From Bacillota bacterium (lineage in GTDB: Bacteria; Bacillota; Clostridia; Christensenellales; Pumilibacteraceae), in the NCBI GenBank assembly GCA_009781235.1, contig WQYM01000001.1, positions 1-56,019 on the forward strand: DNA of 56,019 bases. Direction: 5' to 3'. A model generated the notes under the pieces. The model had not been told where the DNA came from. It did not search any database and worked only from the letters and a program-made list of their open reading frames with translations. A program made the position numbers and the translations under genes. Shown piece after piece: positions 8,437 to 53,738 of the stretch (positions within the stretch are counted from its first letter, which is position 1; each line of letters begins with the position of its first letter).

Positions 8437-8478
8437 GCAGTAATGAATGCAGTAATGCATTCATTACTGCATTACTGC
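8437..8478. repeat. GCAGTAAT-repeat hairpin without core, overlapping a stop codon
   Basis: GCAGTAATGAATGCAGTAATG-CATT-CATTACTGCATTACTGC. The TAA of CDS 8472..9653 lies in the arm. It probably acts as a terminator-like hairpin. Confidence 0.75.
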
Positions 8479-9653: not shown

Positions 9654-9701
9654 AACTGCATTATACCCTATTGCCGCCGTCTTGTCAACGAATCCGCAGG
9701 A

Positions 9702-9732
9702 GCGAAAACAAAAAACGAAAACGAAAAACGAG
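9702..9732. repeat. CGAAAAC/CGAAAAA heptamer array
   Basis: GCGAAAACAAAAAACGAAAACGAAAAACGAG, the reverse complement of the array at 359-383. Confidence 0.6.
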
Positions 9733-9779
9733 GGATGGGATTGGGAAGCCGAAAAGCATGGGCGTCCGTAAACCCAACC

Positions 9780-9864
9780 GTAGGGGTCGCAAGTCCACTG
9801 TGCGGCCCGCACCTCATGAAAAAATTGATTCCGGCGGGTCGCACAGTGGACTTGCGACACCTAC
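9780..9864. repeat. REPIN-like doublet: GTAGGGGTCGCAAGTCCACTGTGCG ... CGCACAGTGGACTTGCGACACCTAC
   Basis: Two inverted palindromic units bounded by GTAGGGG and CCTAC. Confidence 0.8.
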
Positions 9865-9906
9865 GAGGCAGTGTCCTGAGAGAATGATTTTTGATGCCGA
9901 CACCTC

Positions 9907-10013
9907 GTAGGGGCGGATTGCAACCCGCCCGAAAACGCAGTGGAGCAGGCTATCATTTGGGCCAATGAAAGCGCATTTCTCATAATTGCGGGCGGATTGC
10001 CATCCGCCCCTAC
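9907..10013. repeat. REPIN-like doublet: GTAGGGGCGGATTGCAACCCGCCC ... GGGCGGATTGCCATCCGCCCCTAC
   Basis: Inverted palindromic units. The same unit recurs inside mfd at 32709-32782. Confidence 0.8.
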
Positions 10014-10040
10014 AATGGGTTTAACAGCCACCGTTTTTCG

Positions 10041-18197: not shown

Positions 18198-18404
18198 TAT
18201 TGAATATTCCATATTAGACTTGTTCGGAAACTCCCTCGAACTTTTCAAAAAACAGTTTTTGAAACGTCTCGTAGGGGTCGATTTACAAATCGACCCGCCA
18301 AATGTACTTGTTTTAAAGGTTGCGGGTCGATTTGTAAATCGACCCCTACGTTGCATTTCGGTTTTTTAAATCGTGACAGGGTTTCCGAACAAGTCTATTC
18401 AATA
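18198..18404. repeat. nested hairpin: outer 24-34 nt inverted repeat enclosing a REPIN-like doublet (18271-18349)
   Basis: The outer arms are CTATTGAATATTCCATATTAGACTTGTTCGGAAAC and GTTTCCGAACAAGTCTATTCAATA. The inner units are GTAGGGGTCGATTTACAAATCGACCC ... GGGTCGATTTGTAAATCGACCCCTAC. Confidence 0.85.
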
Positions 18405-21523: not shown

Positions 21524-21697
21524 CTTGTCGGGGGGACGGACTCATCGACAAGTTTGCAGCACCAAAGCGCAACGGCCGATCGGTCAAGCTGCCGACAACA
21601 TGTCGGGGTTGTCGATGAGTCCGTCCCCCCGACAACTCCGACAACCGACGCGATGATAACATACTCAACTTATCGATGAGTCCGTCCCCCCGACAAG
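21524..21697. repeat. three TTGTCGGGGGGACGGACTCATCGACAA palindromic units (one forward, two inverted)
   Basis: The units are at 21524-21552, 21609-21635 and 21669-21697. The last one abuts the dus stop codon. Confidence 0.85.
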
Positions 21698-22720
21698 CTA
21701 TATCGGCGCGGATTCTATCGCCGCAATCAGCGTTTTGGCGTCTGTGATGCGGCACAATTCGGCTTTTAAGTCTTTGACGCCGGGGATGCCTTTTAGGTAA
21801 TAGACGAAGTGTTTGCGGAGCGAGGTAACGACATAGCGCTCGGGAAAGGCTTCGAGGGCGTACCCGATGTGGCGCAGGAGGTTTTTTTTAGTTGACGGTT
21901 GACGGTTGACGGTTGACGGTTGTGCCTTGCCAGTTGATATGCTATCATCCCCATCCAATAACTGTCCACTATCCACTGTCCACTGTCCACTTAAAAAAAT
22001 CCCCGGGTTGCCTATCGCTCCCCGCCCGACTATCACCCCCGCGACACCGTAATCTTTTATGCGATCCATCGCTTCCTCACGGCTTGACACGTCGCCGTTG
22101 CCGATTACAGGGACTTTTAGCGCGGCGGCCACCGTCCCGATAGCCTCCCAATCCGCTGCCCCTCCATACAATTGCTTTACAGTGCGTCCGTGTACCGCTA
22201 CGGCGGACGCGCCGGCGGATTCTAAGGCGCGGCAAAAATCGACGGTGTTTTGTTTATCGGAAATCCCGAGGCGCGTCTTTACGGTTACGGGGCGCCCCGA
22301 TATTTGCGTGCTCTTTACGCACGCCTCCACGATCTCCGCCGCCAATTTCGGATTTTTTAAGAGCTCCGAGCCGTCGCCGTTACGCGTAATTTTGGGCATC
22401 GGGCAGCCCATGTTAATATCAATTATATCGAATTTCTCCAGCGCTGGCAAAGAGAGCGCGGCGGAAAAATCGGCCGGGTCGGAGCCGAATAATTGCACGC
22501 ACGACGGCGTTTCGTTGTCGGCCAACGCCAAAAGCTGCGCGGTGTTTTTGCTGTTGTGCACAAAGCCGCGCACCGAAACCATTTCGGTCGTGGTGAGCCC
22601 CGCGCCCGCATCCCTGCAAAGCCGCCGGAACGCAAGGTCGGTATAGCCCGCCATGGGAGCGAGCAAAAGGTTAGACGGGAGCGTGACGGCTCCGATTTTG
22701 ATAGGTTTAATATAGTTCAT
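21698..22720 (-). CDS. dus: tRNA-dihydrouridine synthase with in-frame repeat insert
   Basis: LAPMAGYTD and DINMGCP motifs. ATG at 22720 (MNYIKPIK) is preferred over the TTG at 22747. Confidence 0.88.
   Translation of the reverse strand: MNYIKPIKIGAVTLPSNLLLAPMAGYTDLAFRRLCRDAGAGLTTTEMVSVRGFVHNSKNTAQLLALADNETPSCVQLFGSDPADFSAALSLPALEKFDIIDINMGCPMPKITRNGDGSELLKNPKLAAEIVEACVKSTQISGRPVTVKTRLGISDKQNTVDFCRALESAGASAVAVHGRTVKQLYGGAADWEAIGTVAAALKVPVIGNGDVSSREEAMDRIKDYGVAGVIVGRGAIGNPGIFLSGQWTVDSGQLLDGDDSISTGKAQPSTVNRQPSTKKNLLRHIGYALEAFPERYVVTSLRKHFVYYLKGIPGVKDLKAELCRITDAKTLIAAIESAPI
21883..21999 (-). mobile_element. two-array element (4 x GTTGACG ... 4 x CTGTCCA) inside dus, bounded by TTTTTTTA / TAAAAAAA
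   Basis: The arrays are 21891-21922 and 21961-21991 and are not complementary. The core on the minus strand contains TTGGATGGGGATGA. It is translated as LSGQWTVDSGQLLDGDDSISTGKAQPSTVNRQPSTKK. Confidence 0.7.
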
Positions 22721-22745
22721 TTTGTTCACCAATGATGTCGCGAAC

Positions 22746-22875
22746 AAAATTATAAAATATAAAATATTAAATATAAATTATGGATGAATATTTGAGTAAA
22801 ACAAGTGTTTTTGACAAATAACACGGCAATCAGCAGCCTAAATTTATATTATATATTTTATATTTTATATTTTTT
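22746..22875 (+). mobile_element. heptamer-armed hairpin element (ATAAAAT arms), gene-less copy
   Basis: The arms are 22746-22779 and 22840-22875. The core starts ATGGATGAATATTTGAGTAAAAC. It fills the dus-mazG intergenic gap. Confidence 0.75.
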
Positions 22876-23569: not shown

Positions 23570-23688
23570 AAATTACAAATTACAAATTACAAATAAGGCT
23601 CTTGCACTACTTCACTACCGCACTATTGCACTACTGCACTACCGCACTATTGCACTACCGCACTACCGCACTACCGCACTACCGCACT
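23570..23688. repeat. two different heptamer arrays side by side (3 x ATTACAA, then about 12 x GCACTAC/GCACTAT) without core or partner arm
   Basis: AAATTACAAATTACAAATTACAAAT-AAGGCTCTT-GCACTACTTCACTACCGCACTATTGCACTACTGCACTACCGCACT... Confidence 0.9.
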
Positions 23689-29044: not shown

Positions 29045-32000
29045 TCACCCCAGCAAAAACTTCAGCATCCCCGCCCGATCGGCGCCGAACAGGACGCGGG
29101 AGGCGATGGGGTCGATTTTTGCGCCCTTAAAACGGGCGGCGGAGGGCGGGATATCGGCGGTTTTTCTAAACTTTACAAAGGCCTCGGCACGCTTGACCGT
29201 TACGCCCTCGGCTCGAAGGCGGGCGGCGAGGTTTTTAAGGAGGGCGATTAAGATTAGGTTTTCGGTCGGATGCGGGATGGGGCCGTAGATGTCTTTTAGC
29301 TCGGCCATCAGTCTTTTACGCTCGTCCATCGACGCGGTTTGGCTGATGCGGGTGTAGACGCGGACGCGCAAAGCCTTGTCGGCGATATAGTCGTCGGGGA
29401 TAAAGGCGTTGAAGTCGGTAGTGACCTTGACGTCGGGGAGAAAACCCGACGAGTGAGGAATGAGGAGTGAGGAGTGAGGAACGGTGGAAGAACTGCCCTC
29501 TTTTTCATCCGACATTGTGCGCTGCGTTTCGCGCGTTGTGCATTCGTTGTCATCCATCCATCGTTCCTCACTCCTCACTCCTAACTCCTCACTCCACCCG
29601 CCAAGCTCGGCTACCGCTTCCGCTAGTATCCTTGCGTACATCTCATACCCTACCCGCTCGATGTGGCCGTGCTGCTCGCGCCCCAAAATATTGCCGGCGC
29701 CCCTGATTTCCAAATCCCGCATCGCGATTTTAAAGCCGCTGCCAAACTCGGTGAATTCCGTAATCGCGGCGAGGCGCTGGTACGCGCTTTCGGTAAGGAC
29801 TTTATGACCGTCGAACGTAAAATACACGTGCGCAAGCCGGTTGGAGCGGCCGACGCGGCCGCGCAATTGATAGAGCTGTGCAAGGCCGAAGTGGTCGGCG
29901 TCGATGACCACCATCGTGTTGGCATTGGGCATGTCGATGCCGTTTTCGATGATGGAGGAAGCCACCAAAACGCCGTACTTCCCCGCCGTAAACGCCTCCA
30001 CCGTGTTCTCTAAGCTTTCGGCCGCCATCTGCCCGTGGGCAACCGCGACCCGAACCTCCGCGCCCAGCATGTTTTTAACCTGCGCGGCGAATTTGTCGAT
30101 CGACGCGACGCGGTTATAGACGATAAAGGTTTGGCCGCCGCGCCCCGTTTCGCGCAAAACGGCGTCGGCCAGCAGGCTTTCGGCGTACTCGGTAACGTAG
30201 GTTTTAATCGGCAGGCGCTGCTCCGGCGGGGTGTCAAGCACGCTGATATCGCGGATGTGCGAGAGCGAAAAATGCAGCGTGCGCGGGATGGGCGTCGCCG
30301 AAAGCGTCAGCACGTTTACGTCGCTTTTCAGCGATTTTATCTTTTCCTTGTCCGCGACGCCGAACCGCTGCTCCTCGTCGAGAATCAATAAACCGAGGTC
30401 GCGAAATGCCACGTCTTTTGAGAGCATACGGTGCGTGCCGCATACGATGTCGGCGCGCCCGTTTTGCAGGGATTCGAGCGCGGCGGCGATTTCCTTAGGG
30501 GCGTCGAACCTTGTAAGGCTCACGGCATTCACGCCGAACGGTTCCATGCGGTTTTTTACCGTGTTAAAATGCTGGCGCGCGAGGATGGTAGTCGGGGAAA
30601 GAAACGCGACCTGCTTGCCGTCCGCGATTACCTTGTACGCGGCGCGCAGGGCGACCTCGGTTTTGCCGTAGCCCACATCCCCGCACAACAGCCGATCCAT
30701 CACCTTGCCCCGCTCCAAATCTTTTAGGCACTCGTCCGTCGCGGTTAGCTGGTCCTCCGTCTCGTTGTAGGGGAACGCCGCGGCAAATTCGTCGTCAAGT
30801 TCGCGGTTTTTCGGGTATTGGTGTCCCTTTGCCGCCGCGCGCACCGCATACAATTCGGTTAAATCGACCGCCATTTTTGCGACGGACGCTTTTACGCGCT
30901 CCTTGACGCGCGCAAATTCCGCGCCGCCAATCTTTGAGAGCTTGGGTTCCGCTTCGCCTTCGCCGAAAGCAGAGAGGCTGTCCATGTTTTCGACTGGCAC
31001 GTACAGGGTGTCGCCGCCCGCGTAACGGATGACGGCGTAATCGCGCTCCGCCCCGCCCAATTTCAGGCGCGTAACGGATTCGCAAAAGCCGATGCCGTGG
31101 TAGGCGTGCACGACATACGCGCCGATCGCGGGTTCGGTGAACGGGTCGCGCTTGCCCCGCCGTATCACCTTTTTTTGCCCGCCGCCCGGCGCAATCGACT
31201 TGGTGCCGATCAAAACCAGCTTTTCGTCGTGGAAAATGGCACCCTCGATTAGCTTTTCGGCGACGACGTCAAGTTTGCCTTTGCCGCCCGTATTGAAAGG
31301 CCGCAAAGACGCGAAAAATCCCGTCATTTTTTCCTGCGCCGCCGGACTCCCGCAGAAAATAACGACGCGGTAACCGTTGGACATCCACGCCCTAACGTCG
31401 TCCGCAAGGGCGTTAAAATCGCGGTGATAGGCGGGAAAATCGAGCGAGGATTTAAAGTTGAAGAGGACTTGGGGCTTAAAAAGCCGGTTTTGGCTGTCCA
31501 CCGCATGGAACGCGAGCTTTGGACACGCAAATGCAAGCGCAGATTCCTTTGGCGCGAGTTGGCGAATTGAGGATTTTAACACCTCTCCCTTTGAGAGCCC
31601 CGCCTTGTAACGGTTTTCGTGCTCGGTGTAGATGAGGTTGAGTTGGTCGGCAACTTGCTTTGCGTCGTCAAAAATGACGCGTGCGGGTTTAAAAAAATCC
31701 GCAAAGCCGCAGTGATTGAAAAGCGGCATCAAAAACGACAACCGCATATCGTGGGAACCGGAGGTGAGGTCGGAGGTGAGGTGGGAACGGAGGGTATGGT
31801 ATGCGTCCGCGTCTCGGGGTTCGGAGCTCGGGGGACGGGGTTCGAAGTTTTCAGTGAAGGTATCAGGGCACAAGGCACAAGGCGCAGGTACCGGATGAGC
31901 AAAATCTCCTTTATCTGTGCCTTGTGCCTTGTGCCCTGATACCTTTTCTCTCGTATCCAGCTCCGCCAGCGCGCGCGTCAATATCTCGTCCACCTCGGAT

Positions 32001-32947
32001 TCGCTGTAAAAAACCTCGGTATTGGGGGGAATAAAAATGCGCTCTAATGCCTCTTTTGACGTTAAATCGAACGCGTCAAAGGCTTTAATGCTCTCGACTG
32101 TGTCGCCGAAAAATTCGACGCGCACGCCAGTTTCCCTATCCAGCGGAAACACGTCCAAAATATCGCCGCGCAAACTAAACTGTCCCCGCGCCGCCGCTAG
32201 GCTTTCGCGGCGGTAGCCCGACTGCACCAGCCGTTTTGCCAATTTCTGCGGGTCGTAGTCTTTCCCCGCTTCGATCGTGATAAAATGCGCCTCGAACTGT
32301 TCCCGCAGCGGAAACAACTGGCACACCGCCTCGACGGTGGTTACCACAATGCAAGTAGGATTTTGCACCGCCGCCGCCATCGCACTAAGCCTGGCCGCAT
32401 GGTTTTCGGATGAGCTTAAACGCCGATAGTTTAAAACGTCGTCCTTTGCGGGAAGGAGAATACAATTAGGAATGAGGAGTGAGGAATTAGGAATTGCGGA
32501 TGATTTTGATTCCGATTCCCCGTAGGGGTCGCCGTCCCCGGCGACCCGCCCATCCGATTCCCCGTAGGGGTCGCACGGCGTGCGACCCGCCCCCATGGGC
32601 GGCGATTGGCTCGTCAAACACAAAAACTGCTCGCACGCCCTTTTTGCCGCCAATTCGTCCGCGCAAACGTATATTGTGGGGGATAAAGCGTGGGGAGCAC
32701 CAATCCCCGTAGGGGCGGAGGGCCATCCGCCCGCAGTCCGTGCATTGCCCATATGTTCGGGCGGATTGCCATCCGCCCCCACAAAATTATTCTTTTCCCC
32801 GACCCATTCCCCATTCCCCAACTCCGCCGCCAAAACCGTTCGTGCGCCAAACGACAGCGAAAAAGCCGAGATATTTTTATCCCGGGCACTCTCGAGCAAT
32901 TTTTTTGCTTCTCCTTTAAATTCGATTGGGTGATTATTTGGGAGCAT
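29045..32947 (-). CDS. mfd: transcription-repair coupling factor Mfd carrying several in-frame repeat inserts (1300 aa)
   Basis: Walker A GDVGYGKTEVA, DEEQRFG box, RGRVGRS motif and a CarD-like region (VVHAYHGIG). The inserts are at 29451-29595, 31758-31943, 32465-32597 and 32691-32820. Confidence 0.95.
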   Translation of the reverse strand: MLPNNHPIEFKGEAKKLLESARDKNISAFSLSFGARTVLAAELGNGEWVGEKNNFVGADGNPPEHMGNARTAGGWPSAPTGIGAPHALSPTIYVCADELAAKRACEQFLCLTSQSPPMGAGRTPCDPYGESDGRVAGDGDPYGESESKSSAIPNSSLLIPNCILLPAKDDVLNYRRLSSSENHAARLSAMAAAVQNPTCIVVTTVEAVCQLFPLREQFEAHFITIEAGKDYDPQKLAKRLVQSGYRRESLAAARGQFSLRGDILDVFPLDRETGVRVEFFGDTVESIKAFDAFDLTSKEALERIFIPPNTEVFYSESEVDEILTRALAELDTREKVSGHKAQGTDKGDFAHPVPAPCALCPDTFTENFEPRPPSSEPRDADAYHTLRSHLTSDLTSGSHDMRLSFLMPLFNHCGFADFFKPARVIFDDAKQVADQLNLIYTEHENRYKAGLSKGEVLKSSIRQLAPKESALAFACPKLAFHAVDSQNRLFKPQVLFNFKSSLDFPAYHRDFNALADDVRAWMSNGYRVVIFCGSPAAQEKMTGFFASLRPFNTGGKGKLDVVAEKLIEGAIFHDEKLVLIGTKSIAPGGGQKKVIRRGKRDPFTEPAIGAYVVHAYHGIGFCESVTRLKLGGAERDYAVIRYAGGDTLYVPVENMDSLSAFGEGEAEPKLSKIGGAEFARVKERVKASVAKMAVDLTELYAVRAAAKGHQYPKNRELDDEFAAAFPYNETEDQLTATDECLKDLERGKVMDRLLCGDVGYGKTEVALRAAYKVIADGKQVAFLSPTTILARQHFNTVKNRMEPFGVNAVSLTRFDAPKEIAAALESLQNGRADIVCGTHRMLSKDVAFRDLGLLILDEEQRFGVADKEKIKSLKSDVNVLTLSATPIPRTLHFSLSHIRDISVLDTPPEQRLPIKTYVTEYAESLLADAVLRETGRGGQTFIVYNRVASIDKFAAQVKNMLGAEVRVAVAHGQMAAESLENTVEAFTAGKYGVLVASSIIENGIDMPNANTMVVIDADHFGLAQLYQLRGRVGRSNRLAHVYFTFDGHKVLTESAYQRLAAITEFTEFGSGFKIAMRDLEIRGAGNILGREQHGHIERVGYEMYARILAEAVAELGGWSEELGVRSEERWMDDNECTTRETQRTMSDEKEGSSSTVPHSSLLIPHSSGFLPDVKVTTDFNAFIPDDYIADKALRVRVYTRISQTASMDERKRLMAELKDIYGPIPHPTENLILIALLKNLAARLRAEGVTVKRAEAFVKFRKTADIPPSAARFKGAKIDPIASRVLFGADRAGMLKFLLG
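29451..29595 (-). mobile_element. heptamer-armed hairpin element (GAGTGAG/CCTCACT arms) in frame in mfd
   Basis: It is homologous to 6088-6232 in both arms and core, and is read in the same element frame (SEELGVRSEERWM...). Confidence 0.85.
31758..31847. repeat. two-array insert (2 x GGAGGTGAGGT(C) ... CGGGGTTCG-like) in mfd
   Basis: CCGGAGGTGAGGTCGGAGGTGAGGTGGG - core - CTCGGGGTTCGGAGCTCGGGGGACGGGGTTCGAAG. Confidence 0.6.
31859..31943 (+). mobile_element. short heptamer-armed hairpin (GGCACAA arms) in frame in mfd
   Basis: The 29-nt arms are 31859-31887 and 31915-31943 and are nearly perfectly complementary. The 27-nt loop contains CCGGATGAGCAAAATC. Confidence 0.85.
32465..32597 (+). mobile_element. 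composite insert in the mfd N-terminal domain: AGGAATT/GAGTGAG arm + GCGGATGATTTTGA core start + two GTAGGGGTCGC palindromes
   Basis: Read directly from the sequence. It is translated as QSPPMGAGRTPCDPYGESDGRVAGDGDPYGESESKSSAIPNSSLLIPN. Confidence 0.7.
32691..32820. repeat. REPIN-like doublet (GTAGGGGCGGAGGGCCATCCGCCC ... GGGCGGATTGCCATCCGCCCCC) plus CATTCCC repeats inside mfd
   Basis: It is the same unit family as 9907-10013. It is translated as NGEWVGEKNNFVGADGNPPEHMGNARTAGGWPSAPTGIGAPHALS. Confidence 0.7.
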
Positions 32948-35732: not shown

Positions 35733-35750
35733 GGTTTCCTTTATGAAATA

Positions 35751-35845
35751 TTGTCGGGGAGACGGTGGTATTTGACAACTTTTCCAAGTGTCGCTGTTTT
35801 TGCACTATAGAATAAATTGTCAAATACCACCGTCCCCCTGACAAC
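35751..35845. repeat. inverted doublet TTGTCGGGGAGACGGTGGTATTTGACAA ... TTGTCAAATACCACCGTCCCCCTGACAA
   Basis: The units are 35751-35778 and 35818-35845. It belongs to the same family as 21524-21697. Confidence 0.85.
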
Positions 35846-35850
35846 TTTTC

Positions 35851-36051
35851 TTATACTCCTGCCACGGCGTTCAGCTTAGCGACAAGCTCGCCGGCATCCG
35901 CGCCGTGCGCCGCAGCCGCTTGCTCGACCGTCTCATTGCGCGACATCGGGCAGCCCAAACAATGCATCCCCAGCGACAAGAACACGGGCGCGGCGTCCGG
36001 GCAAAGGGTTAACACCTCGTGAATGGTCATATCCTTATGAATTTTTGACAT
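35851..36051 (-). CDS. DUF1858-type small redox/disulfide protein
   Basis: MTIHEVLTLCPDAAPVFLSLGMHCLGCPMSRNETVEQAA pattern. Confidence 0.75.
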   Translation of the reverse strand: MSKIHKDMTIHEVLTLCPDAAPVFLSLGMHCLGCPMSRNETVEQAAAAHGADAGELVAKLNAVAGV

Positions 36052-40276: not shown

Positions 40277-41882
40277 CGTCGTCGTCCCCTTGAATGGCGG
40301 GATTGTGGGTTCGGGGCTCGGAATTCGGGGCTCGGGATTCGGGGTTCGGGATTCGGGGTATTAAGTTGTCTTCCTTTAACTGACCACCGACCACCGACCA
40401 CTGACCACTCTCCTCGGGGTTCGGGATTCGGGGTATTAACTCGTCTTCCTTTAACTGACCGCTGGCCACTGGCCACTGACCACTGACCCCCATAGGAGCC
40501 GATGCCCTCGCTGGCCCGCCGTCCCCTGTCCCTACGGTATCTATCCGTTGTTCACCGGCCATCCCTTCTCTCCGCAATTCCTCACTCCTAATTCCTAATT
40601 CCTCATTCGCCTCATTCGCCTCGTTCTCACCTGCCTCGTCCTCCATGGCCGGCAGCGCCAAAATCTCACGTCCGGCGATGCCTTCTAAGTCGCCGCTCAT
40701 GCCGCAGAGGCTTTTAGAAACCTTTTCGATGATTTTTTCCTGCGCCGCCCAACGCTTCTGCGCCTGCTTTTTTTCGAGCGCGAGCTGGCGCGCCATTTCG
40801 TCGTAGGACTCGATGACGCTGCGGATCCGGGAGGCGAATTCCCCGCCCGTCAGATAATTGTACATCATCTCTATTTTGACGTCCTTGCCGCTTGCGTTCC
40901 GGTTGGCGACAAAAACTCTTACGCACACCTCGCGCAAAAGCGAGGCAAGCATCACGGCATAGCGGGGCTTGACCATCCAAATGTTGCCCTCAATCTGCTT
41001 AAAGTCCTCACCGCCGCCGTCGGTCGGGCGAAACACCAAAACGCCGATTTGCGCTTTTTCTTCCGCCATGACGTCTTTGAGTTTTTCGAGCCATTTAGGG
41101 GAATACGCCTTGGCGTTTTTACATTCCCATACAATCAGGCCGCAGTTTTGATAAAATTGTTCGTTTACGGTTTGGCGGACGTCGGAACCTTGCTCGCCTT
41201 TTTTAACCTCTCTAACCGAGTCATAAGGAAAATGGGCACGCAAGGATTGCTCTAAGTCAAGCTCTAAAATTTCACCCTGCGCCTGCTGCGAGCCTTGTTC
41301 GGCCACCTGCTTTGCCGCCGTCAGTTGCTCGCGCAATTTAGAAATGGTTTCTTGCTGTTCGCGGATTTGCGTATAAAAGTCCTCGGACGCCGCCCTTACC
41401 GCCTCCTCGCGGATGAGCTTTTCTTTTGAGAGCAGCTCCTTGCGGGCGGCAAGCTCGGCGTCTTTTTTTGCCTCGGCGGCTTTCGACAATTCCTCGAGCA
41501 GCCCTTTTTGCTGCTCGCGCAATCTGTCCGCGCTGTCTTGGGCGTTTTTGGCCTCGCGGCGGAGCTTCTCGTTTTCGAGCTCGGTGGATTGCTTGGCGTT
41601 TTCCAGCGCCAGCTCCGTCGCTTGCTTGGTTCTCTCTAATTCAAGCTTGGCGTTTTGGCGTTCACGTAAAAGCTTTTGCTCCGCCGCTTGCTCCGCCTCG
41701 CGCACGGCCGATAACACCGCCTGCTTCTCGTTTTCCTCGGCGCGCGACAAAAACTCCCGGCGCAAATTTTCTTCCTGCCCGGCCTTGGCTTTTGTCAGCT
41801 CGTCCTCTATTTGGCGCTGAATGGCGTCGGTTATTTCAAAAGGATTTTTGCAATTTGGGCAAACGATTACGGTTCCGCTCAT
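40266..41882 (-). CDS. DUF2130-like protein: N-terminal CPNC zinc-ribbon-like motif, long coiled coil, PD-(D/E)xK-like core, repeat-derived C-terminal tail
   Basis: MSGTVIVCPNCKNPF. There are about 190 aa of E/K/Q/A-rich heptads. GSDV...IVWECKNAK (D...ExK). From about aa 405 the tail is encoded by repeat elements. Confidence 0.75.
   Translation of the reverse strand: MSGTVIVCPNCKNPFEITDAIQRQIEDELTKAKAGQEENLRREFLSRAEENEKQAVLSAVREAEQAAEQKLLRERQNAKLELERTKQATELALENAKQSTELENEKLRREAKNAQDSADRLREQQKGLLEELSKAAEAKKDAELAARKELLSKEKLIREEAVRAASEDFYTQIREQQETISKLREQLTAAKQVAEQGSQQAQGEILELDLEQSLRAHFPYDSVREVKKGEQGSDVRQTVNEQFYQNCGLIVWECKNAKAYSPKWLEKLKDVMAEEKAQIGVLVFRPTDGGGEDFKQIEGNIWMVKPRYAVMLASLLREVCVRVFVANRNASGKDVKIEMMYNYLTGGEFASRIRSVIESYDEMARQLALEKKQAQKRWAAQEKIIEKVSKSLCGMSGDLEGIAGREILALPAMEDEAGENEANEANEELGIRSEELRREGMAGEQRIDTVGTGDGGPARASAPMGVSGQWPVASGQLKEDELIPRIPNPEESGQWSVVGGQLKEDNLIPRIPNPESRAPNSEPRTHNPAIQGDDDDAY
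40307..40488 (-). repeat. two tandem copies of a two-array element ((GGTCAGT)n - GTTAAAGGAAGAC - (CCCCGAA)n) in the DUF2130 tail
   Basis: The copies are 40307-40409 and 40413-40488, homologous to 44565-44660. They are translated as SGQW.V.GGQLKED.LIPRIPNPE. Confidence 0.8.
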
Positions 41883-44387: not shown

Positions 44388-44458
44388 GTGACCCGGTCAA
44401 TGCGTGTCCCGTGACCCGGTCAATGCGTGTCCCGTGACCCGGTCACCGTGCACGGGAC
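44388..44458. repeat. 2.5 tandem copies of the 23-mer GTGACCCGGTCAATGCGTGTCCC ending in a hairpin
   Basis: The copies are 44388-44410, 44411-44433 and a partial copy at 44434-44458 (GTCCCGTG...CACGGGAC). Confidence 0.85.
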
Positions 44459-44557: not shown

Positions 44558-44564
44558 GAGAATT

Positions 44565-44660
44565 CAGTTTTCAGTTTTCAGTTGTCGGTTGTCAGTTGAA
44601 AGAAGATGGATTTGTATCCTGTCCCCCGAGCCCCGAATCCCGAACCCCGAACCCCGAAAA
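44565..44660 (+). mobile_element. two-array element ((CAGTTTT/CAGTTGT)n - GAAAGAAGATGGATTTG - (CCCCGAA)n)
   Basis: The arrays are 44565-44597 and 44623-44660. It ends 8 nt from the stop of the acyl-CoA synthetase gene. Confidence 0.75.
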
Positions 44661-44667
44661 TCGCCCC

Positions 44668-46332
44668 CTACGCCGTTACAATGCCCGCCGCTTTTTCTAA
44701 GCCAAGCTCCTTGACCGCCTGCTCGCGCAGCAAGTACTTTTGAATCTTGCCGCTGGCGGTTTTGGGAAAGTCGTCGATAAACAGCACCTTAGCGGGCATC
44801 TTGTGCTTGGCTAAATTGTTGCCGACGTATTTTTTGATATCGTCCTCCGTCGCCTTTTTCCCATGCTTCAAAATAACGAACGCGCAGGCTTCCTCGCCGT
44901 AGGTTTTGGACGGAATCGAAACGACCGCGACGTCGGAAACGCTCGGGTGCGTGTAGATAAAGTCCTCGATTTCCTTGGGGGAAATGTTTTCGCCGCCACG
45001 GATAATCATGTCCTTGATGCGCCCCGTGATTTTATAGTAGCCGTCCTCATCGACCCGCGCCAAATCCCCGGTGTGCAGCCAGCAGTCGGAATCGATGGCC
45101 GCGGCCGTCGATTCGGGCAATTTGTAGTAGCCTTTCATTACGTTGTAGCCGCGCACGCAAAACTCGCCGTCCACGCCGGGCGGCACTTCTTTTCCCGTTT
45201 CCGGGTCGATTATTTTGCATTCCATGTGCGGCAAAGCGCGGCCCACCGTGTTGACGCGCTTCTCTAAAGAGTCGTCGGTCGTCGTTTGCGTACACCCGGG
45301 GGACGCCTCGGTTTGGCCGAATACGATGGTAATCTCGCGCATGTTCATCTTGTCCGCGACGTCCTGCATCACTTTTACCGGACAGGGGCTGCCGGCCATG
45401 ATGCCGGTACGCAAAGAAGAGTAATCGTATTTGGCAAAATCACGGTGCTCCAAAATCCCGATAAACATCGTGGGCACGCCGTGCACCGCCGTCGCTTTCT
45501 CGTACTCGATGACGTGCATGACCTTCATCGGCGTGTACCACAATAGCGGCAGCATCGTCGCGCCGTGCGTAACGGAAGCCATAATCGCCAAAACGAGCCC
45601 AAAGCAATGGAAAAACGGCACCGGGATGCACAAACGGTCGTTTTCCGTGAACTTCATGCAATCGCCGATGCTAAGGCCGTTGTTGACGAGGTTTTTATGC
45701 GTCAGCATCACGCCCTTCGGGAATCCCGTGGTACCGGAGGTGTACTGCATGTTGATTACGTCGTCGGGGTCAAGGCTTGCTTTCCGTTTTTCAAATTCGC
45801 ATTCGGAAACCAAAATGGCAAAGTTCTCAATATCGTTCCAATGATACATCCCATCGTAACGGTTATCAAACGAAACAACGGTTTTGAGCATCGGCAGCTT
45901 TTTAGATTTCAGCTCGCCCTTTTTGCAATTTTTTAACTCCGGGCAAATCGAATAGATGATTTTCTCGCAGTCAATGTCTTTGAGCCCGTCACACACAAAA
46001 AGCGCTTTAGCGTCCGATTGCGCTAATAAAAACTCCAGCTCGTTTTCCTTATAGCTGGTGTTGACCGTCACCAAAACGACGCCGATGCGCGCGGTGGCAA
46101 ACAACAACACCAGCCATTGCGGATAGTTGGTCGCCCACACCGCGGCGTGGTCGCCCTTTTTAAAACCCATGCCCATAAGGCCCTTTGCGATACTGTCCAC
46201 CTTTTGGTTAAACTCGTAATAGGTTTTGTCAAACTTCATTTCGATGTATTTTACCGCCTGATGCGTGGGGAATTTGCGCGCGGTTTCCTCGAGCATTTGC
46301 CCGACGGTAATGTTTTTGAGGGGGGTGGTCAT
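44668..46332 (-). CDS. AMP-forming acyl-CoA synthetase
   Basis: YTSGTTGFPKGV AMP-binding motif and a C-terminal ...GKIQKY. GGAG RBS. Confidence 0.9.
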   Translation of the reverse strand: MTTPLKNITVGQMLEETARKFPTHQAVKYIEMKFDKTYYEFNQKVDSIAKGLMGMGFKKGDHAAVWATNYPQWLVLLFATARIGVVLVTVNTSYKENELEFLLAQSDAKALFVCDGLKDIDCEKIIYSICPELKNCKKGELKSKKLPMLKTVVSFDNRYDGMYHWNDIENFAILVSECEFEKRKASLDPDDVINMQYTSGTTGFPKGVMLTHKNLVNNGLSIGDCMKFTENDRLCIPVPFFHCFGLVLAIMASVTHGATMLPLLWYTPMKVMHVIEYEKATAVHGVPTMFIGILEHRDFAKYDYSSLRTGIMAGSPCPVKVMQDVADKMNMREITIVFGQTEASPGCTQTTTDDSLEKRVNTVGRALPHMECKIIDPETGKEVPPGVDGEFCVRGYNVMKGYYKLPESTAAAIDSDCWLHTGDLARVDEDGYYKITGRIKDMIIRGGENISPKEIEDFIYTHPSVSDVAVVSIPSKTYGEEACAFVILKHGKKATEDDIKKYVGNNLAKHKMPAKVLFIDDFPKTASGKIQKYLLREQAVKELGLEKAAGIVTA

Positions 46333-46370
46333 TGTGGGAACTCCTTATATCGTGCGTTAGAGCTTTTATT

Positions 46371-46720
46371 AGTGCAGTAGTGCAATAGTGCAATAGTGCA
46401 ATAGTGCAGTAGTGATGGTTTCTATTCTGTCGTTGTATTTTTAGATAGCAAATAAAATCTTGTTTATTTCTGCACAACCTCTTTTTATGTCATAATACGA
46501 TTGGGCATCTATATATCCCGTCGCATACAGTAGCTCAATCCAATACTCACACTCCGTCGCTTCTTTTAAAGCAATACCAATCTTATTCGCAAAGTCTCTC
46601 TTGCTAACCGCGCGATTTGCTTCAAATACATTTGCGCCGACACTCGTTCCGGAACGTACAAGTTGTTATTGTCACTCACTTTTCATCCTCCACTACTGCA
46701 CTACTGCACTATTGCACTAG
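46371..46720 (-). mobile_element. heptamer-armed element (AGTGCAG/GCACTAC arms) carrying a truncated four-helix-bundle gene
   Basis: The arms are 46371-46414 and 46691-46720 and are complementary. On the minus strand the interior starts GAGGATGAAAAGTGAGTGA (RBS, ATG, 3 codons, stop). Confidence 0.8.
46441..46665 (-). pseudogene. N-terminally truncated four-helix-bundle (23S rRNA IVS-protein family) gene
   Basis: My own translation is QLVRSGTSVGANVFEANRAVSKRDFANKIGIALKEATECEYWIELLYATGYIDAQSYYDIKRGCAEINKILFAI*. It matches the family pattern RSxTSIGANxxEA...SKxDFxxKxxIALKEAxETxYWLxLL. Confidence 0.75.
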
Positions 46721-47778
46721 ATTTTGTACGTCCACCCGAACTTGTCGAGTTCCCTTCCCCACTGCAAACCCGTCAGCATATCATACAACTCTTGCGTAGT
46801 TTTGCCGATTTGTCTGCCGTTTACGGTGTAGGACTTGCCAAGGTGAAAAAATTCGCCAATCGGCGAAATCACCGCCGCCGTGCCCGTGCCGAAGGCTTCC
46901 TCTAACGTGCCGGCGCCGTGCGCCGCGATAATCTCGTCAAACGAAACGGGGCGCTCGGTCACCTTGATGCCGGACGCACGCAAAAGCTCGATGCAGGAGG
47001 AGCGGGTGATGCCGGGCAGGATAGAGCCGGAGAGCTCGGGGGTGACGACTTCGCCCGCGATTTTAAACATCACGTTCATCGCGCCGACTTCTTCGATGTA
47101 TTTGCGGTTCACCCCGTCGAGCCATAGCACCTGGGCGCACTTTTCGCCGATGGCGCGCTTTCCGGCACGCAAACTCGCCGCGTAATTGCCGCCGCATTTG
47201 GTGTATCCGGTGCCGCCCTTGACCGCGCGCACGTCGTCGCATTCGACCATGATGCGCACGGGGCTAAGCCCGCCCGCATAGTAGGCGCCGACCGGCGATC
47301 CAATCAGCATAAATACCGCGGAATCCACTGGATGCACGCCCAAAAACTCGTCGTTGCCGAATAGGTACGGGCGCAAATAGAGGGAGGTTCCGGGTAAAGA
47401 CGGCACCCAATCTTGCTCAAGCCGCACGAATTCGGTGAGGATTTGCATAAAATCTGCCTCCGGAACCGTCGGCAGGCACATACGCTCACACGATACGTTC
47501 ATGCGCTTGGCGTTTTCTTGGGGACGGAATAGTTGAATCCCGCCGTCTTTTGTCCGGTATGCCTTGAGCCCCTCGAACACCTCCGCACCGTAGTGCAGCA
47601 CGGTGGACGCCGGGTGAATCAAAAAAGGCGCAAACGGCACGATACGGGGGTTGACCCACTTGCCCGACGTATATTCGGATACGAACATGTGGTCGGAAAA
47701 GAACTTGCCAAAGCCGAGTACTTCCGGATTGGGCTTTTCTTTGGGGGCGGATGTTTTTGTGATTGTTATGTTTAACAT
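46717..47778 (-). CDS. ilvE: branched-chain amino acid aminotransferase
   Basis: Class IV aminotransferase pattern: EGLKAYR and GGTGYTKCGGNYAASL. GGAG RBS. The TAG stop lies in the element arm. Confidence 0.9.
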   Translation of the reverse strand: MLNITITKTSAPKEKPNPEVLGFGKFFSDHMFVSEYTSGKWVNPRIVPFAPFLIHPASTVLHYGAEVFEGLKAYRTKDGGIQLFRPQENAKRMNVSCERMCLPTVPEADFMQILTEFVRLEQDWVPSLPGTSLYLRPYLFGNDEFLGVHPVDSAVFMLIGSPVGAYYAGGLSPVRIMVECDDVRAVKGGTGYTKCGGNYAASLRAGKRAIGEKCAQVLWLDGVNRKYIEEVGAMNVMFKIAGEVVTPELSGSILPGITRSSCIELLRASGIKVTERPVSFDEIIAAHGAGTLEEAFGTGTAAVISPIGEFFHLGKSYTVNGRQIGKTTQELYDMLTGLQWGRELDKFGWTYKI

Positions 47779-47889
47779 GGTGACTCCTTTTTCACTTAAA
47801 ACTTAAAAATGAAAACTTAAAAATGTTGAATGATTATGGATAAGGAGACAAAAAACATCCTCCATTTTTCAGTTTTAAGTTTTAAGTTT

Positions 47890-48411
47890 TCATTGACTCT
47901 TCCCTATCCTAAACGCCTTCATATTCAGCTCAATCATGTCCGCGCGCTTGGCGGAAATGGCTTTTACGAGGGCGGCTTTGACGGTTTCTTCGTCCTCCGC
48001 CGCCAAAACCTTGCCCATCATGATGATGTTGGCTAGGCTTGCCATTCCGTTATCGGAGGCCAATTGCGTTGCCGGCACGTACACGGCGCAGACGTCGGCG
48101 CGGTTCACTTTGCGGCCGATCAGCGTGGAATCGACAAAAATGGTGCTGCCGGGCTTTGCCGCAGACTCGAACTTATCGAGCGAGGGCAAATTCAGCGCAA
48201 CCAACACGTCGGAAGCGTTGACAATGGGCGAACCGACCGGATCGTCCGAAATAATTACCGAGCAATTCGCGGTTCCGCCGCGCATCTCCGGGCCGTAGGA
48301 TGGCAGCCAACTGACCTGTTTGCCCTTGGTCAGCCCTAAATACGCTAAAAATTTACCGGCGAACAATACGCCTTGGCCGCCGAACCCGGCGAGTAGGTAT
48401 TGGGTAGTCAT
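47890..48411 (-). CDS. 2-oxoacid:ferredoxin oxidoreductase gamma subunit
   Basis: The N-terminus carries GFGGQGV. The start was trimmed to ATG 48411, which has a GGAG RBS. Confidence 0.85.
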   Translation of the reverse strand: MTTQYLLAGFGGQGVLFAGKFLAYLGLTKGKQVSWLPSYGPEMRGGTANCSVIISDDPVGSPIVNASDVLVALNLPSLDKFESAAKPGSTIFVDSTLIGRKVNRADVCAVYVPATQLASDNGMASLANIIMMGKVLAAEDEETVKAALVKAISAKRADMIELNMKAFRIGKSQ

Positions 48412-48463
48412 GGTGATAATCTCCTTTTTCAATACGATAATCAATCCTTAGTGCACTATTGCA

Positions 48464-49210
48464 CTATTGCACTTTACTGCGGTCTTTGTACACTCCCACC
48501 GGGTAATACGGCAACATTTTTTCCTCTAACCACTTTAGGGCGGCCGTCGGGGCGAGGCCCCAGTTGGTGGTGCAGGTGGAAAGCACCTCGATTAGAGAAA
48601 AGCCTTTGTTGTTTACTTGGTTTTCGAACGCCTTTTTAATCGCCTTTTTGGCGCTACGCACGAATTTAACGTTGTGGACGGAAACGCGCTCCAAATACTC
48701 CGGGCCGTCTAACGTTGCCAGCATTTCGCACACTTTTATCGGGTAACCGCAAAGCGAGGGGTTGCGGCCGTAGGGAGAGGTCTGCGTGACTTGGCCCGGG
48801 AGGCTGGTGGGCGCCATTTGGCCGCCCGTCATGCCGTAAATCGTGTTGTTGATAAAAATAATCGTGATATTTTCGCCCCGCGCCGCCGCGTGCACGGTTT
48901 CCGCCATGCCGATGGACGCCAAATCGCCGTCGCCCTGATAGGTAAAGACGATGTTGTTAGGGTCGGCGCGTTTAATGCCCGTGGCCACCGCCGGAGCCCG
49001 ACCGTGCGCAGCTTGCGCCATATCAAAATTGTAGTACTCATAAATGAGCACCGCGCAGCCGACCGGCGCGACGCCGATTGTTTTGCCCTCGATACCGAGT
49101 TCGTCCACGGCTTCGGCTACAAGGCGATGCACGATGCCGTGCGTACAGCCCGGGCAATAGTGCAGGGGCACGTTTGAGAGGGATTTGGGTTTTTCAAAAA
49201 CTGTTTTCAT
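48464..49210 (-). CDS. 2-oxoacid:ferredoxin oxidoreductase beta (TPP-binding) subunit
   Basis: YCPGCTHG and YQGDGD motifs. The start was trimmed to ATG 49210 (MKTVFEKP), which has a GGAG RBS. The longer ORF runs into the repeat arm. Confidence 0.9.
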   Translation of the reverse strand: MKTVFEKPKSLSNVPLHYCPGCTHGIVHRLVAEAVDELGIEGKTIGVAPVGCAVLIYEYYNFDMAQAAHGRAPAVATGIKRADPNNIVFTYQGDGDLASIGMAETVHAAARGENITIIFINNTIYGMTGGQMAPTSLPGQVTQTSPYGRNPSLCGYPIKVCEMLATLDGPEYLERVSVHNVKFVRSAKKAIKKAFENQVNNKGFSLIEVLSTCTTNWGLAPTAALKWLEEKMLPYYPVGVYKDRSKVQ

Positions 49211-49228
49211 AGAATAATCTCCATTTTG

Positions 49229-49399
49229 AATGATAAATGATAAATTATAAATGATAAATGTCGGATGGGTTGACTTCCGGAACAAAAGAATTACGCTCTT
49301 TCACAAGCATACAACATCAATAATTTATCATTTATCATTTATCATTTATCATTTGTCTATCATTTATCATTTATCATTTATCATTTATCATTTATCATT
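49229..49399 (+). mobile_element. heptamer-armed hairpin element (ATGATAA/TTATCAT arms) between the alpha and beta subunit genes
   Basis: The arms are 49229-49260 and 49324-49399. The core starts TCGGATGGGTTGACTTCCGGAACAAAAGAA. The right arm encodes the last residues and the stop of the alpha subunit. Confidence 0.85.
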
Positions 49400-50477: not shown

Positions 50478-50631
50478 ATTTACAATTTACGATTTAAAAT
50501 TTACAAATTAGGGATAAGTGTTTTTCGGTTTAAAAGCAAAGTTCTTTTGTTCCGGGCACTCTTATCGGGCTGCCGCAAAAAATCCGTCAATAGTTTGTAA
50601 ATTGTAAATCGTAAATCGTAAATCGTAAATT
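50478..50631 (-). mobile_element. heptamer-armed hairpin element (ATTTACG arms), gene-less copy
   Basis: The arms are 50478-50509 and 50594-50631. The reverse complement of the core aligns with the core of 118-251 (shared CCGGAACAAAAGAAC, CGGAT and TATCCCT). Confidence 0.8.
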
Positions 50632-51172: not shown

Positions 51173-51474
51173 AAAAAAATCCCCACGCAAAACACGTAGG
51201 GACGAATTTTTTATCCGCGGTACCACCCAAATTGACGCATCGCTTTTACAGCGAAACATCCGACTCATTCGACCGATAACGGAGTCAACCCGGATTTGCT
51301 TACTGACCCTCTTGCAGACCGACGATGGCATCGGCCCCTACAAAAACTGTTCGGCAATCTGCTAAAAAAGGGAGAAATCCTAAGAACTTTGCACCGCCTT
51401 TCACCAAGCAGCGGCTCTCTTTGGCTAAAATAACAAAGGATTTATGGCTTTTGTCAAGCGCATTTGATATTGTG
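51173..51474 (-). promoter_or_regulatory. T-box riboswitch leader
   Basis: Minus-strand motifs in order: AGAGAG (51415-51420), GGTGAAA (51399-51405), AGTA, F-box CCGTTA (51277-51282), T-box TTTGGGTGGTACCGCGG (51215-51231), then the terminator TCCCTACG-TGTTTTG-CGTGGGGATTTTTTT (51173-51203). Confidence 0.8.
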
Positions 51475-53245: not shown

Positions 53246-53291
53246 TGTGTGAGTCAATCTCCATTTGCAAAACATTGGCATTCGGTATCGT

Positions 53292-53736
53292 CGGGGTTCG
53301 GGGTTCGGGATTCGGAATTCGAAATTAGTTTTATGTATCAAGTTTTTTAATTAAGGCGTTTATCATTTGACCGATTCGGGCTACAAGACACAAGCAATCC
53401 TCAATATCAGTATCTGACAAATATCCTACATCTACACAAAGAAGACATTGAGTCTCCAGCTCGCAACTTGAGCTTCTTGATATGGCTAAAAACTGAATGT
53501 ATTCTTTCGTTGAGTTTCTAGAATGCCCTTCTGCAATATTCGACGGTATAGATACCGCGGCACGACACATTTGGCTTGTTAATCCGTATTGTTCGTTGCG
53601 CGGCAACCTCTTTGTAAGCAAATATACTCTTTTTACAAGTTCTCTACTTACTTGCCAAACTTCAAGCTCCTTGTAGTTTTTTATCACTTCTGAATCTCCC
53701 TAAATTCGAATCCCGAATCCCGAACCCCGAACCCCG
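53292..53736 (-). mobile_element. heptamer-armed element (GGGGTTC/CCCCGAA arms) carrying an intact four-helix-bundle gene
   Basis: The arms are 53292-53326 and 53702-53736, with 24 perfectly complementary bp plus a partial extension. It fills the pstA-pstB gap and ends 2 nt from the pstCA stop. Confidence 0.85.
53331..53687 (-). CDS. four-helix-bundle protein (23S rRNA intervening-sequence protein family)
   Basis: YKELEVWQ, YGLTSQMCRAAVSIPSNIAEGHSR, EYIQFLAISRSS..ELETQ. GTG start with an AGGGAGA RBS. Confidence 0.88.
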   Translation of the reverse strand: MIKNYKELEVWQVSRELVKRVYLLTKRLPRNEQYGLTSQMCRAAVSIPSNIAEGHSRNSTKEYIQFLAISRSSSCELETQCLLCVDVGYLSDTDIEDCLCLVARIGQMINALIKKLDT

Positions 53737-53738
53737 AC

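Follow-up and report, generated by a model that had tools for sequence, protein, structure and literature searches.

A Four-Helix-Bundle Gene Remnant between Inverted Octamer Arrays in a T-Box Operon: Probably an Inactivated Hairpin Cassette

In a Bacillota bacterium of the class Clostridia from termite gut (Christensenellales, Pumilibacteraceae; assembly GCA_009781235.1, contig WQYM01000001.1), the spacer between a branched-chain aminotransferase gene and an acyl-CoA synthetase gene holds an element (46370-46719, minus strand) in which the remnant of a four-helix-bundle gene is enclosed by two inverted arrays of tandem octamers. All positions refer to the 56,019-nt stretch of this contig that was analyzed (positions 1 to 56,019 of the forward strand; hereafter the window). 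This element is probably an inactivated copy of a hairpin-bracketed cassette, an apparently selfish unit that carries one PF05635/TIGR02436 gene between two inverted tandem 7- or 8-mer arrays and is of the same kind as the intervening sequences (IVSs) of ribosomal RNA (rRNA). We read it as a defunct IVS-like hairpin cassette, with the stem as its only remaining activity.

Two loose ends meet in this element. One is the role of the four-helix-bundle proteins (S23p) of the 23S rRNA IVSs, together with the origin of the IVSs themselves, and the other is the cause of genomes littered with heptamer arrays. The genes of the four-helix-bundle (S23p) proteins, a group that includes Avd, rank with the most common small bacterial genes that lack an explanation. 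The remnant shows the cassette design outside rRNA, in an ordinary operon, and at the point where the gene is being lost while the stem is intact.

Results

The body of the pseudogene (46441-46671, minus strand), identified by Pfam, NCBIfam and alignments with homologues and with PDB entry 2RLD, consists of a CAA codon, a TAA codon, 74 open codons (46665-46444) and a terminal TAA (46443-46441). When translated, the 74 codons align to profile positions 34-105 of 106 in PF05635 (E = 1.9e-19; 70.3 bits, cut-off 33.8), to TIGR02436 (E = 5e-21; 74.8 bits, cut-off 24) and to residues 41-114 of 121 in 2RLD (E = 4e-21). The translation covers helices 2-4 of the PF05635/TIGR02436 protein; helix 1 is missing, and the match stops short of the roughly 106 positions of a full-length domain. 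An earlier note on this DNA had proposed a truncated four-helix-bundle gene between complementary arms, to be checked by alignment to the PF05635 hidden Markov model (HMM); these significant matches, together with the pairing of the arms described below, bear the proposal out.

The closest relatives of the remnant are 69-72% identical, comprise 116-128 residues and start with MKENVIK.KSF.FAVRIVKLY.FL...KKEYIMSKQL(M)R.GTS. In DNA alignments homology of the remnant begins at the KQL codons. Some 29-31 N-terminal codons (about 90 nt), encoding helix 1 and all or part of the leader, have been lost. At the protein level the homologues extend past the remnant by about 36 residues at the N-terminus and about 7 at the C-terminus. 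The TAA at 46668-46666 occupies the position of a lysine in the homologues and the terminal TAA that of a serine, after which the homologues continue for about 7 residues. No ATG, GTG or TTG start is present in the frame of the remnant, and no open reading frame (ORF) was listed there.

The junction between this body and the adjoining 5' arm (46672-46690, minus strand) reads GGAGGATG AAA AGT GAG TGA, with an ATG at 46686-46684, a TGA at 46674-46672 and a GGATG motif 2 nt inside the 5' arm. It can be read in two ways. Either the Shine-Dalgarno (SD) sequence, the ATG and three codons were kept and followed by an internal deletion, or the arm was fused to an internal VEDEK segment that then suffered small indels (GTG GAG GAT GAA AAG compared with GTC GAG GAC AAA AAA in homologue L182, 12/15 nt). 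Since the two alignments are about equally good, they leave the exact end points of the deletion unfixed. The description of this junction in the earlier note as a ribosome-binding site, an ATG, three codons and a stop is accurate to the letter. No spacer, however, separates the SD from the ATG, an arrangement that argues against a functional start, and given the VEDEK alignment this ATG may not be the ancestral start codon. The lost start codon, the in-frame stops and the premature C-terminal stop together mean that no four-helix-bundle protein can be made. The gene is dead under either reading of the junction. The surviving codons score 70.3 bits, and the same segment of seven intact homologues scores 69.5-77.2 bits. 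Since this segment scores like intact homologues, inactivation was probably recent.

The 5' arm (5' as the operon and the remnant are read; 46691-46719, minus strand) reads TAGTGCAA TAGTGCAG TAGTGCAG TAGTG, for which Tandem Repeats Finder reports 3.6 copies of period 8 with 95% matches. The 3' arm (46370-46414, minus strand) comprises 5.6 copies of period 8 with 94% matches, its octamers on the minus strand being CACTACTG / CACTATTG. The repeat unit is therefore the octamer GCACTAYT and not the heptamer GCACTAC named in the title of the earlier note. An inverted-repeat scan pairs 46386-46414 with 46691-46719 at 28 of 29 positions (97%) across a spacing of 276 nt. Since the 3' arm exceeds the complementary 5' arm by 16 nt, several pairing registers are possible. 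In the minimum-free-energy RNA fold of the element the arms form an uninterrupted 30-bp stem (z = -5.2). The scan for promoters and terminators returned no terminator-like site within 46340-46720, where the stem is followed by AAUAAAAGCUCU and so lacks the combination of GC-rich stem and U run, and no promoter-like site inside the element. No Rfam family covers the element, nor does rRNA or any other family reach its gathering score in the window.

An independent ENA assembly has the identical locus; its single mismatch to the contig in 7062 nt falls at about position 49264, outside the locus. The same sequence is contained in Logan contigs of two termite-gut runs (2017 and 2019). This recurrence in an independent assembly and in separate runs argues against an assembly artifact. 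A comparison of the locus with the contigs of four termite-gut runs revealed no variant with or without the element, the joints being uninterpretable owing to short unitigs and repeated arms. In two runs the word depth over the octamer arms (46337-46403 and 46672-46738) is about 50-90 times that of the flanking genes, whereas the interior of the element is single-copy in the metagenome; many contigs of these runs join a left-arm-like to a right-arm-like array. These two observations indicate that GCACTAYT-armed hairpins are abundant in these termite-gut metagenomes. A metagenome scan with the arm sequence GCACTAYTGCACTAYTGCACTA returned 85 loci, nearly all of them solo arrays in unrelated contexts. 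Since only one of these loci (L125; loosely also L158) combines a GCACTAYT arm with a four-helix-bundle gene, the arm type alone is not diagnostic.

The design of the element recurs in other genomes. In other metagenomes, inverted tandem 7- or 8-mers surround the genes of relatives L002 and L004 (CAATGNN-type heptamers), L182 (between DHH and truB genes), L186 (between hsdS and hsdR) and L125, in which the GCACTAYT octamers of the remnant enclose a gene of the other subfamily. All six plasmid-borne four-helix-bundle genes that we inspected, from hosts of four phyla (Nostoc punctiforme, N. flagelliforme, Anabaena cylindrica, Bernardetia, Treponema saccharophilum and Monoglobus pectinilyticus), likewise stand between inverted tandem arrays. 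The cassette on A. cylindrica plasmid pANACY.01 (L181) sits between cas2 and cas1, and that of M. pectinilyticus (L177; NZ_OY725736.1, 80876-81217), which is unannotated and contains two in-frame stops, between hsdS and hsdR. Insertion between hsdS and hsdR of type I restriction systems thus occurred in two independent cases (L177 and L186), both of which are pseudogenes. Decay is recurrent in the family: nonsense codons interrupt the N-terminal third of L182 and L186, the Monoglobus copy has its two stops, and in L184 the N-terminus has been replaced by unrelated sequence. These cases agree with the term "decaying" that the earlier note had applied to the remnant. The arms of intact cassettes fit very closely against the SD and against the stop codon.

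The survey further covered 21 IMG/VR loci selected only by protein similarity in an alignment-based scan, with 300 positions as controls; a scan of viral contigs with a single protein had produced no matches. An array is present on at least one side of 12/21 loci (2% of controls) and on both sides of 7/21 (none of the controls). The inverted-repeat score exceeds the 95th percentile of the controls in 13/21 loci. Full-text literature searches yielded no paper that describes inverted tandem arrays around PF05635 genes as a general feature outside rRNA.

The window itself holds an intact cassette for comparison (53290-53738, minus strand), located between a pst permease gene and pstB. Its 118-residue four-helix-bundle gene (53331-53687) lies between heptamer arms (GGGGTTC/GGGATTC) that are 95% complementary and fold into a 34-bp stem at the RNA level (z = -8.6). 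Both this copy and the remnant match TIGR02436; BLASTP detected no similarity between the two, and the intact copy is closest to NF008911/PRK12275. The assignment of the remnant to a different subfamily, already made in the earlier note, is thus upheld.

Arrays are a general feature of this DNA: the window contains 36, compared to 0-1 in a shuffled window (20 shuffles), and their density of 6.4 per 10 kb contrasts with 0.08 per 10 kb in 623 kb of related Clostridia. The period is 7 in 31/36 arrays and 8 in the arms of the remnant element. At least 13 array hairpins without a gene have loops of 11-110 nt, which are mostly unrelated to each other; the loops of elements 49227 and 50478 share a core, CCGGAACAAAAGAA, that is unrelated to the gene. 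The motif GGATG occurs 18 times in the gene-less loops compared to 2.1 expected (about 9-fold, P about 1e-11) and is present in 12/15 of them (elements 6087, 8932, 21891, 22746, 26348, 26781, 29448, 31857, 32464, 40489, 47792 and 49227). When an element is read with the motif as GGATG, it lies 0-17 nt inside the 5' arm, which gives the hairpins a polarity. GGATG is the only interior feature common to the remnant and the gene-less loops, and could be either a relic of an SD plus start codon or a signal for recognition or cleavage. Element 47792-47896 also carries the octamer GGAGGATG of the remnant junction. The solo octamer array 48452-48473 contains a 10-nt palindromic junction, TAGTGCACTA, and resembles a hairpin with no loop left.

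Several gene-less hairpins lie in frame and free of stops within ORFs: 29448-29595 and 31857-31945 (both in ORF 29045-32947, minus strand), 6087-6233 (ORF 5353-7239), 8932-9039 (ORF 8472-9860) and 21891-21991 (ORF 21698-22747). The host genes are an mfd-like gene, an M20 peptidase gene, dus and an ORF of unknown function. The Mfd insert amounts to about 40 extra residues, placed between translocase module and C-terminal domain (query 232-288 compared with 1047-1063 of M. smegmatis Mfd). The two GAGTGAG-armed in-frame copies encode similar peptides (SEELGVRSEERWM..ECTTR..). These in-frame copies suggest that the array hairpins are insertional.

The operon around the element is read from the minus strand and comprises, after a T-box leader, genes labeled by Pfam as fdx, three 2-oxoacid:ferredoxin oxidoreductase subunits, ilvE and acs. 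The upstream cistron (46717-47778) encodes the ilvE-like branched-chain aminotransferase (PF01063), and the downstream cistron (44668-46332) an AMP-binding acyl-CoA synthetase, whose own SD (AAGGAG, 46346-46341) lies outside the element. The element lies in sense orientation in this spacer. As the earlier note had recognized, the right arm supplies the stop codon of ilvE: the triplet CTA at 46717-46719, the last of this arm on the plus strand, is the TAG that opens the 5' arm. The left arm ends about 38 nt before the acs ATG at 46332. The T-box leader (51195-51467, minus strand) matches the full RF00230 model with E = 2e-16 and 79.5 bits, below the gathering score of 93, and is accompanied by terminator-like and promoter-like sites at the expected places; the T-box of the operon, another claim of the earlier note, is supported. 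The match spans 273 nt compared to 219 model positions, so the leader may carry an insertion. With the T-box leader upstream and neither a promoter-like nor a terminator-like site inside it, the element should be transcribed within the operon RNA.

Array elements occupy every intercistronic gap of this operon (44564-44658, 46370-46720, 47792-47896, 48452-48473, 49227-49399 and 50478-50630). The final codons of the upstream oxidoreductase gene, together with its stop (..MINDK*), come from the array 49323-49399. Within GTDB genomes, the closest relatives of IlvE (Oscillospiraceae, Acutalibacteraceae and Eubacteriales metagenome-assembled genomes) are 64-68% identical, too distant for a comparison of empty and filled sites. 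In a distant relative, L088 (5313-5669 in JAZNWJ010000017.1, a metagenome-assembled genome of the Acutalibacteraceae) has an intact 118-residue four-helix-bundle gene 250 nt downstream of ilvE. This gene follows a terminator, has no tandem arms, precedes a different downstream gene and sits among small ATGAAG-tagged palindromes. We rejected L088 as an orthologous site; its location resembles that of the window copy, but it is probably an independent insertion.

Complementarity is not shared by all array pairs of the window, as regions 44564-44658, 21891-21991, 23570-23688 and 40298-40626 show. In 23570-23688 two different arrays stand side by side, and in the composite segment 40298-40626 a 75-nt block of two array types is duplicated. 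The arrays GTTGACG and ACTGTCC pair at 5/7 positions. The pair TCAGTTG/CCCCGAA is not complementary: a hand check of the registers gave only about 3/7 positions and a stricter ungapped scan only 5 contiguous complementary bases. A second, unrelated repeat class consists of palindromes that resemble repetitive extragenic palindromic (REP) sequences and carry a GTAGGGG tag (CGTAGGGGTCGC...GCGACCCGC). They occur at 9779-9865, 9900-10020, 18261-18359, 32500-32800, 35742-35853 and 21524-21697, and several of them lie within the loop of array element 32464-32820. A perfect 23-nt tandem repeat, GTGACCCGGTCAATGCGTGTCCC, is present in 2.5 copies at 44388-44445, downstream of the operon and beside array element 44564-44658.

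Discussion

If the element is an inactivated hairpin-bracketed cassette, it would be co-transcribed with the operon RNA, and its arms would form a duplex of some 30 bp with the ilvE stop codon inside it. By analogy to the rRNA-borne members, which are cut in the stem, this duplex would probably be cleaved by ribonuclease III (RNase III), or else act as a 3'-end stabilizer. In both cases the ilvE and acs portions of the message would become uncoupled, with little burden on the host. At the DNA level the arms could extrude as a hairpin or cruciform, which would probably be the route by which the cassette inserts and by which its arms are kept alike. In characterized relatives the protein forms a pentameric, Avd-like RNA-binding barrel.

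Several observations weigh against this interpretation. We found no RNA run that contains the locus, and we infer co-transcription and cleavage. Mismatches between the arms of 24 cassettes are G.U-compatible in the sense strand in 23 cases, and in the antisense strand in 24, with 41 others. Without a sense-strand bias, nothing singles out an RNA stem over a DNA-level structure, and pairing may be kept as a hairpin or cruciform in DNA or by the way in which arms are generated. The arms may also be conserved simply because the copy is young. The mobility of the cassette we infer as well: target-site duplications are absent (the longest word shared by the flanks averages 3.46 nt for 13 elements compared to 3.30 nt for 2000 random positions), neither a transposase nor a reverse transcriptase turned up beside the elements (for reverse transcriptase no dedicated search was made), and no empty site was found, the IlvE relatives being too distant for site comparison. 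In addition, roughly 40% of the four-helix-bundle genes have no arms.

The earlier note had drawn the remnant as a link in a deletion series that leads down to the roughly 150-nt copies. In this view, the gene-less hairpins of about 100-170 nt would be internal-deletion derivatives of four-helix-bundle cassettes, akin to MITEs (miniature transposable elements with inverted repeats), and the remnant an intermediate caught in the act. The shared architecture of inverted tandem arms plus loop fits this idea, as do the position of GGATG just inside the 5' arm of the remnant and in most gene-less loops, the common GGAGGATG in 47792-47896, and the palindromic junction of 48452-48473, which is what a loop-less end point should look like. 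Arm families of gene-less copies moreover recur around genes elsewhere (AATTAGG/AATGAGG/AGTGAGG in Monoglobus and L190, GCACTAYT in L125), and pseudogenization and deletion are frequent in the family, both in the relatives above and in Coxiella (PMC4990558). Direct comparisons nevertheless do not demonstrate the series. The loops of 16 gene-less elements are no more similar to 14 four-helix-bundle genes (best score 24.3 bits) than shuffled loops are (up to 30.2 bits), and a six-frame HMM scan of the window returned only the two known copies and no further remnant. The intact copy contains no GGATG, some gene-less loops have a core of their own, and the single intermediate has lost only about 90 of 370 nt, on one side. 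We therefore regard the deletion series as rather unlikely.

Still less probable in our estimate is the converse, in which array hairpins are primary, either mobile or generated by slippage, and four-helix-bundle genes are loop cargo that the remnant is losing again. It would account for the excess of gene-less (at least 13) over gene-carrying hairpins (2) in 56 kb, for one arm type around two gene subfamilies (the remnant and L125), for arms that stay intact while the gene decays, and for arrays that stand alone or in non-complementary pairs (23570-23688, 44564-44658). Inverted heptamer pairs in Xanthomonas, reported with no mention of enclosed genes (PMC4692102), point the same way. However, insertion scars or target duplications were not found, the tight fit of arms to SD and stop codon in intact cassettes suggests a single unit and not a gene inserted at random into a loop, and related genes accompany related arms (Monoglobus and L190). 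We give similarly little credence to a domesticated hairpin, selected to adjust ilvE levels relative to those of acs through processing by RNase III, protection of the 3' end or uncoupling of translation, with the dead gene as filler. A stem that is 97% complementary beside an ORF with several lesions, array elements in all gaps of the operon, and the view of the Coxiella authors that the RNA part matters more than the protein (PMC4990558) would be consistent with such selection. But since the surviving ORF segment is just as uneroded, intact arms do not require selection, and there is no sense-strand G.U bias. The near absence of arrays from related Clostridia indicates that the operon works without them, and hairpins in frame inside protein-coding genes point to indiscriminate insertion. 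A chance similarity or an assembly artifact, for which we can say only that repeats may mislead assemblers, is so improbable as to be negligible: E-values against curated models are 1e-19 to 1e-21, the sequence is identical in independent assemblies and runs, and shuffled windows are essentially free of arrays.

We thus favor the inactivated hairpin-bracketed cassette. A wider proposal, which we put forward only tentatively and consider doubtful as a whole, is that arm-bracketed PF05635 genes constitute a single class of selfish hairpin cassettes, widespread in Cyanobacteria, Bacteroidota, Spirochaetota, Bacillota and viral contigs, of which the 23S IVS would be the rRNA-resident special case. 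Heptamer arrays, including the short tandemly repeated repetitive (STRR) sequences, the Xanthomonas GGGAATC pairs and gene-less hairpins such as the in-frame ones, would then be footprints or non-autonomous derivatives, and an Avd-like protein would spread or maintain the hairpin by acting on it.

The remnant copy itself is of modest interest. What deserves follow-up is the cassette design, which recurs across phyla in our survey, and its possible tie to heptamer arrays; the arm-bracketed four-helix-bundle cassette is widespread and barely described. If the link holds, arms plus gene would constitute a testable unit for hairpin-based mobility, for RNase III processing of mRNAs and for the genesis of repeat arrays. 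It would also be a warning for annotation, as the arrays mimic CRISPR-type repeats and can fuse or interrupt ORFs.

Comparison with Known Systems

Short palindromic units of about 100-150 nt that occur in spacers and in frame within protein-coding genes reportedly include the Rickettsia palindromic elements of Ogata et al. (2000) as well as MITEs, and in this respect they resemble the gene-less hairpins of the window. Likewise, small dispersed repeats of Nostoc are said by Elhai et al. (2008) to be embedded in heptamer arrays, so that, as here, a hairpin core is flanked by tandem heptamers. Unlike Rickettsia palindromic elements and MITEs, the elements of the window have neither target-site duplications nor a conserved body, their arms are arrays with element-specific units, and the large versions hold a four-helix-bundle gene instead of a transposase.

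Inverted pairs of heptamer simple sequence repeats (GGGAATC) have been described in Xanthomonas, with no mention of enclosed genes (PMC4692102), and long heptamer repeats, including STRR sequences, in cyanobacteria (Nostoc) and Beggiatoaceae (PMC4679880; Mrazek 2007 as cited there). Like the arrays studied here, these heptamers are intergenic, lie close behind the upstream ORF and often form convergent pairs able to fold into stem-loops. G-rich units similar to that of Xanthomonas, GGGATTC and GGGGTTC, are also present in the window (53290-53738 and 40298-40357). The papers on Xanthomonas and Beggiatoaceae describe one dominant unit per genome, whereas in the window each element has its own unit. 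Neither PMC4692102 nor PMC4679880 ties the arrays to four-helix-bundle genes; the term "S23" is absent from both, and "helix bundle" and "intervening" from PMC4679880.

Avd, the accessory protein of diversity-generating retroelements, is a pentameric, positively charged four-helix bundle that binds RNA stem-loops (bioRxiv 10.1101/2023.10.23.563531). The Avd RNA has complementary segments upstream and downstream of the template, a likeness to the arm-bracketed cassette. The remnant does not match the Avd model NF033474, and the intact window copy, at 32 bits, stays below its cut-off of 80. No reverse transcriptase was annotated or called beside the homologous genes, although no dedicated or exhaustive search for reverse transcriptases or template and variable repeats was made, and the neighbors in the window are metabolic genes.

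The closest published case to the remnant element is the 23S rRNA IVS of Coxiella. This 428-nt element in helix 45 of 23S rRNA carries an S23p ORF in the loop of a stem that is cut by RNase III, with two or three tandem heptamers, the number varying by strain, beside the ORF (PMC4990558). The ORF is undergoing reductive evolution, including a 176-bp deletion in one strain, and in the conclusion of its authors the RNA part counts for more than the protein (PMC4990558). The remnant differs from such IVSs in that it resides in an mRNA spacer between two protein-coding cistrons and not in helix 25 or 45 of 23S rRNA, and in that each of its arms is entirely a tandem array of octamers and not a unique inverted repeat. 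RNase III cleavage has been shown for the IVS of Coxiella and others, and by analogy may extend to the stem of the remnant. With the IVSs of Coxiella burnetii, Leptospira, Brucella and Xanthomonas (PMC4990558) the remnant shares the protein family and an ORF placed in the loop of a stem formed by terminal inverted repeats. It further shares tandem repeats beside the ORF, which in Coxiella are heptamers of variable copy number, and an ORF that is dispensable and decaying. The 23S IVSs are also regarded as selfish and horizontally acquired (PMC4990558), and in this, too, the remnant element appears to be alike.

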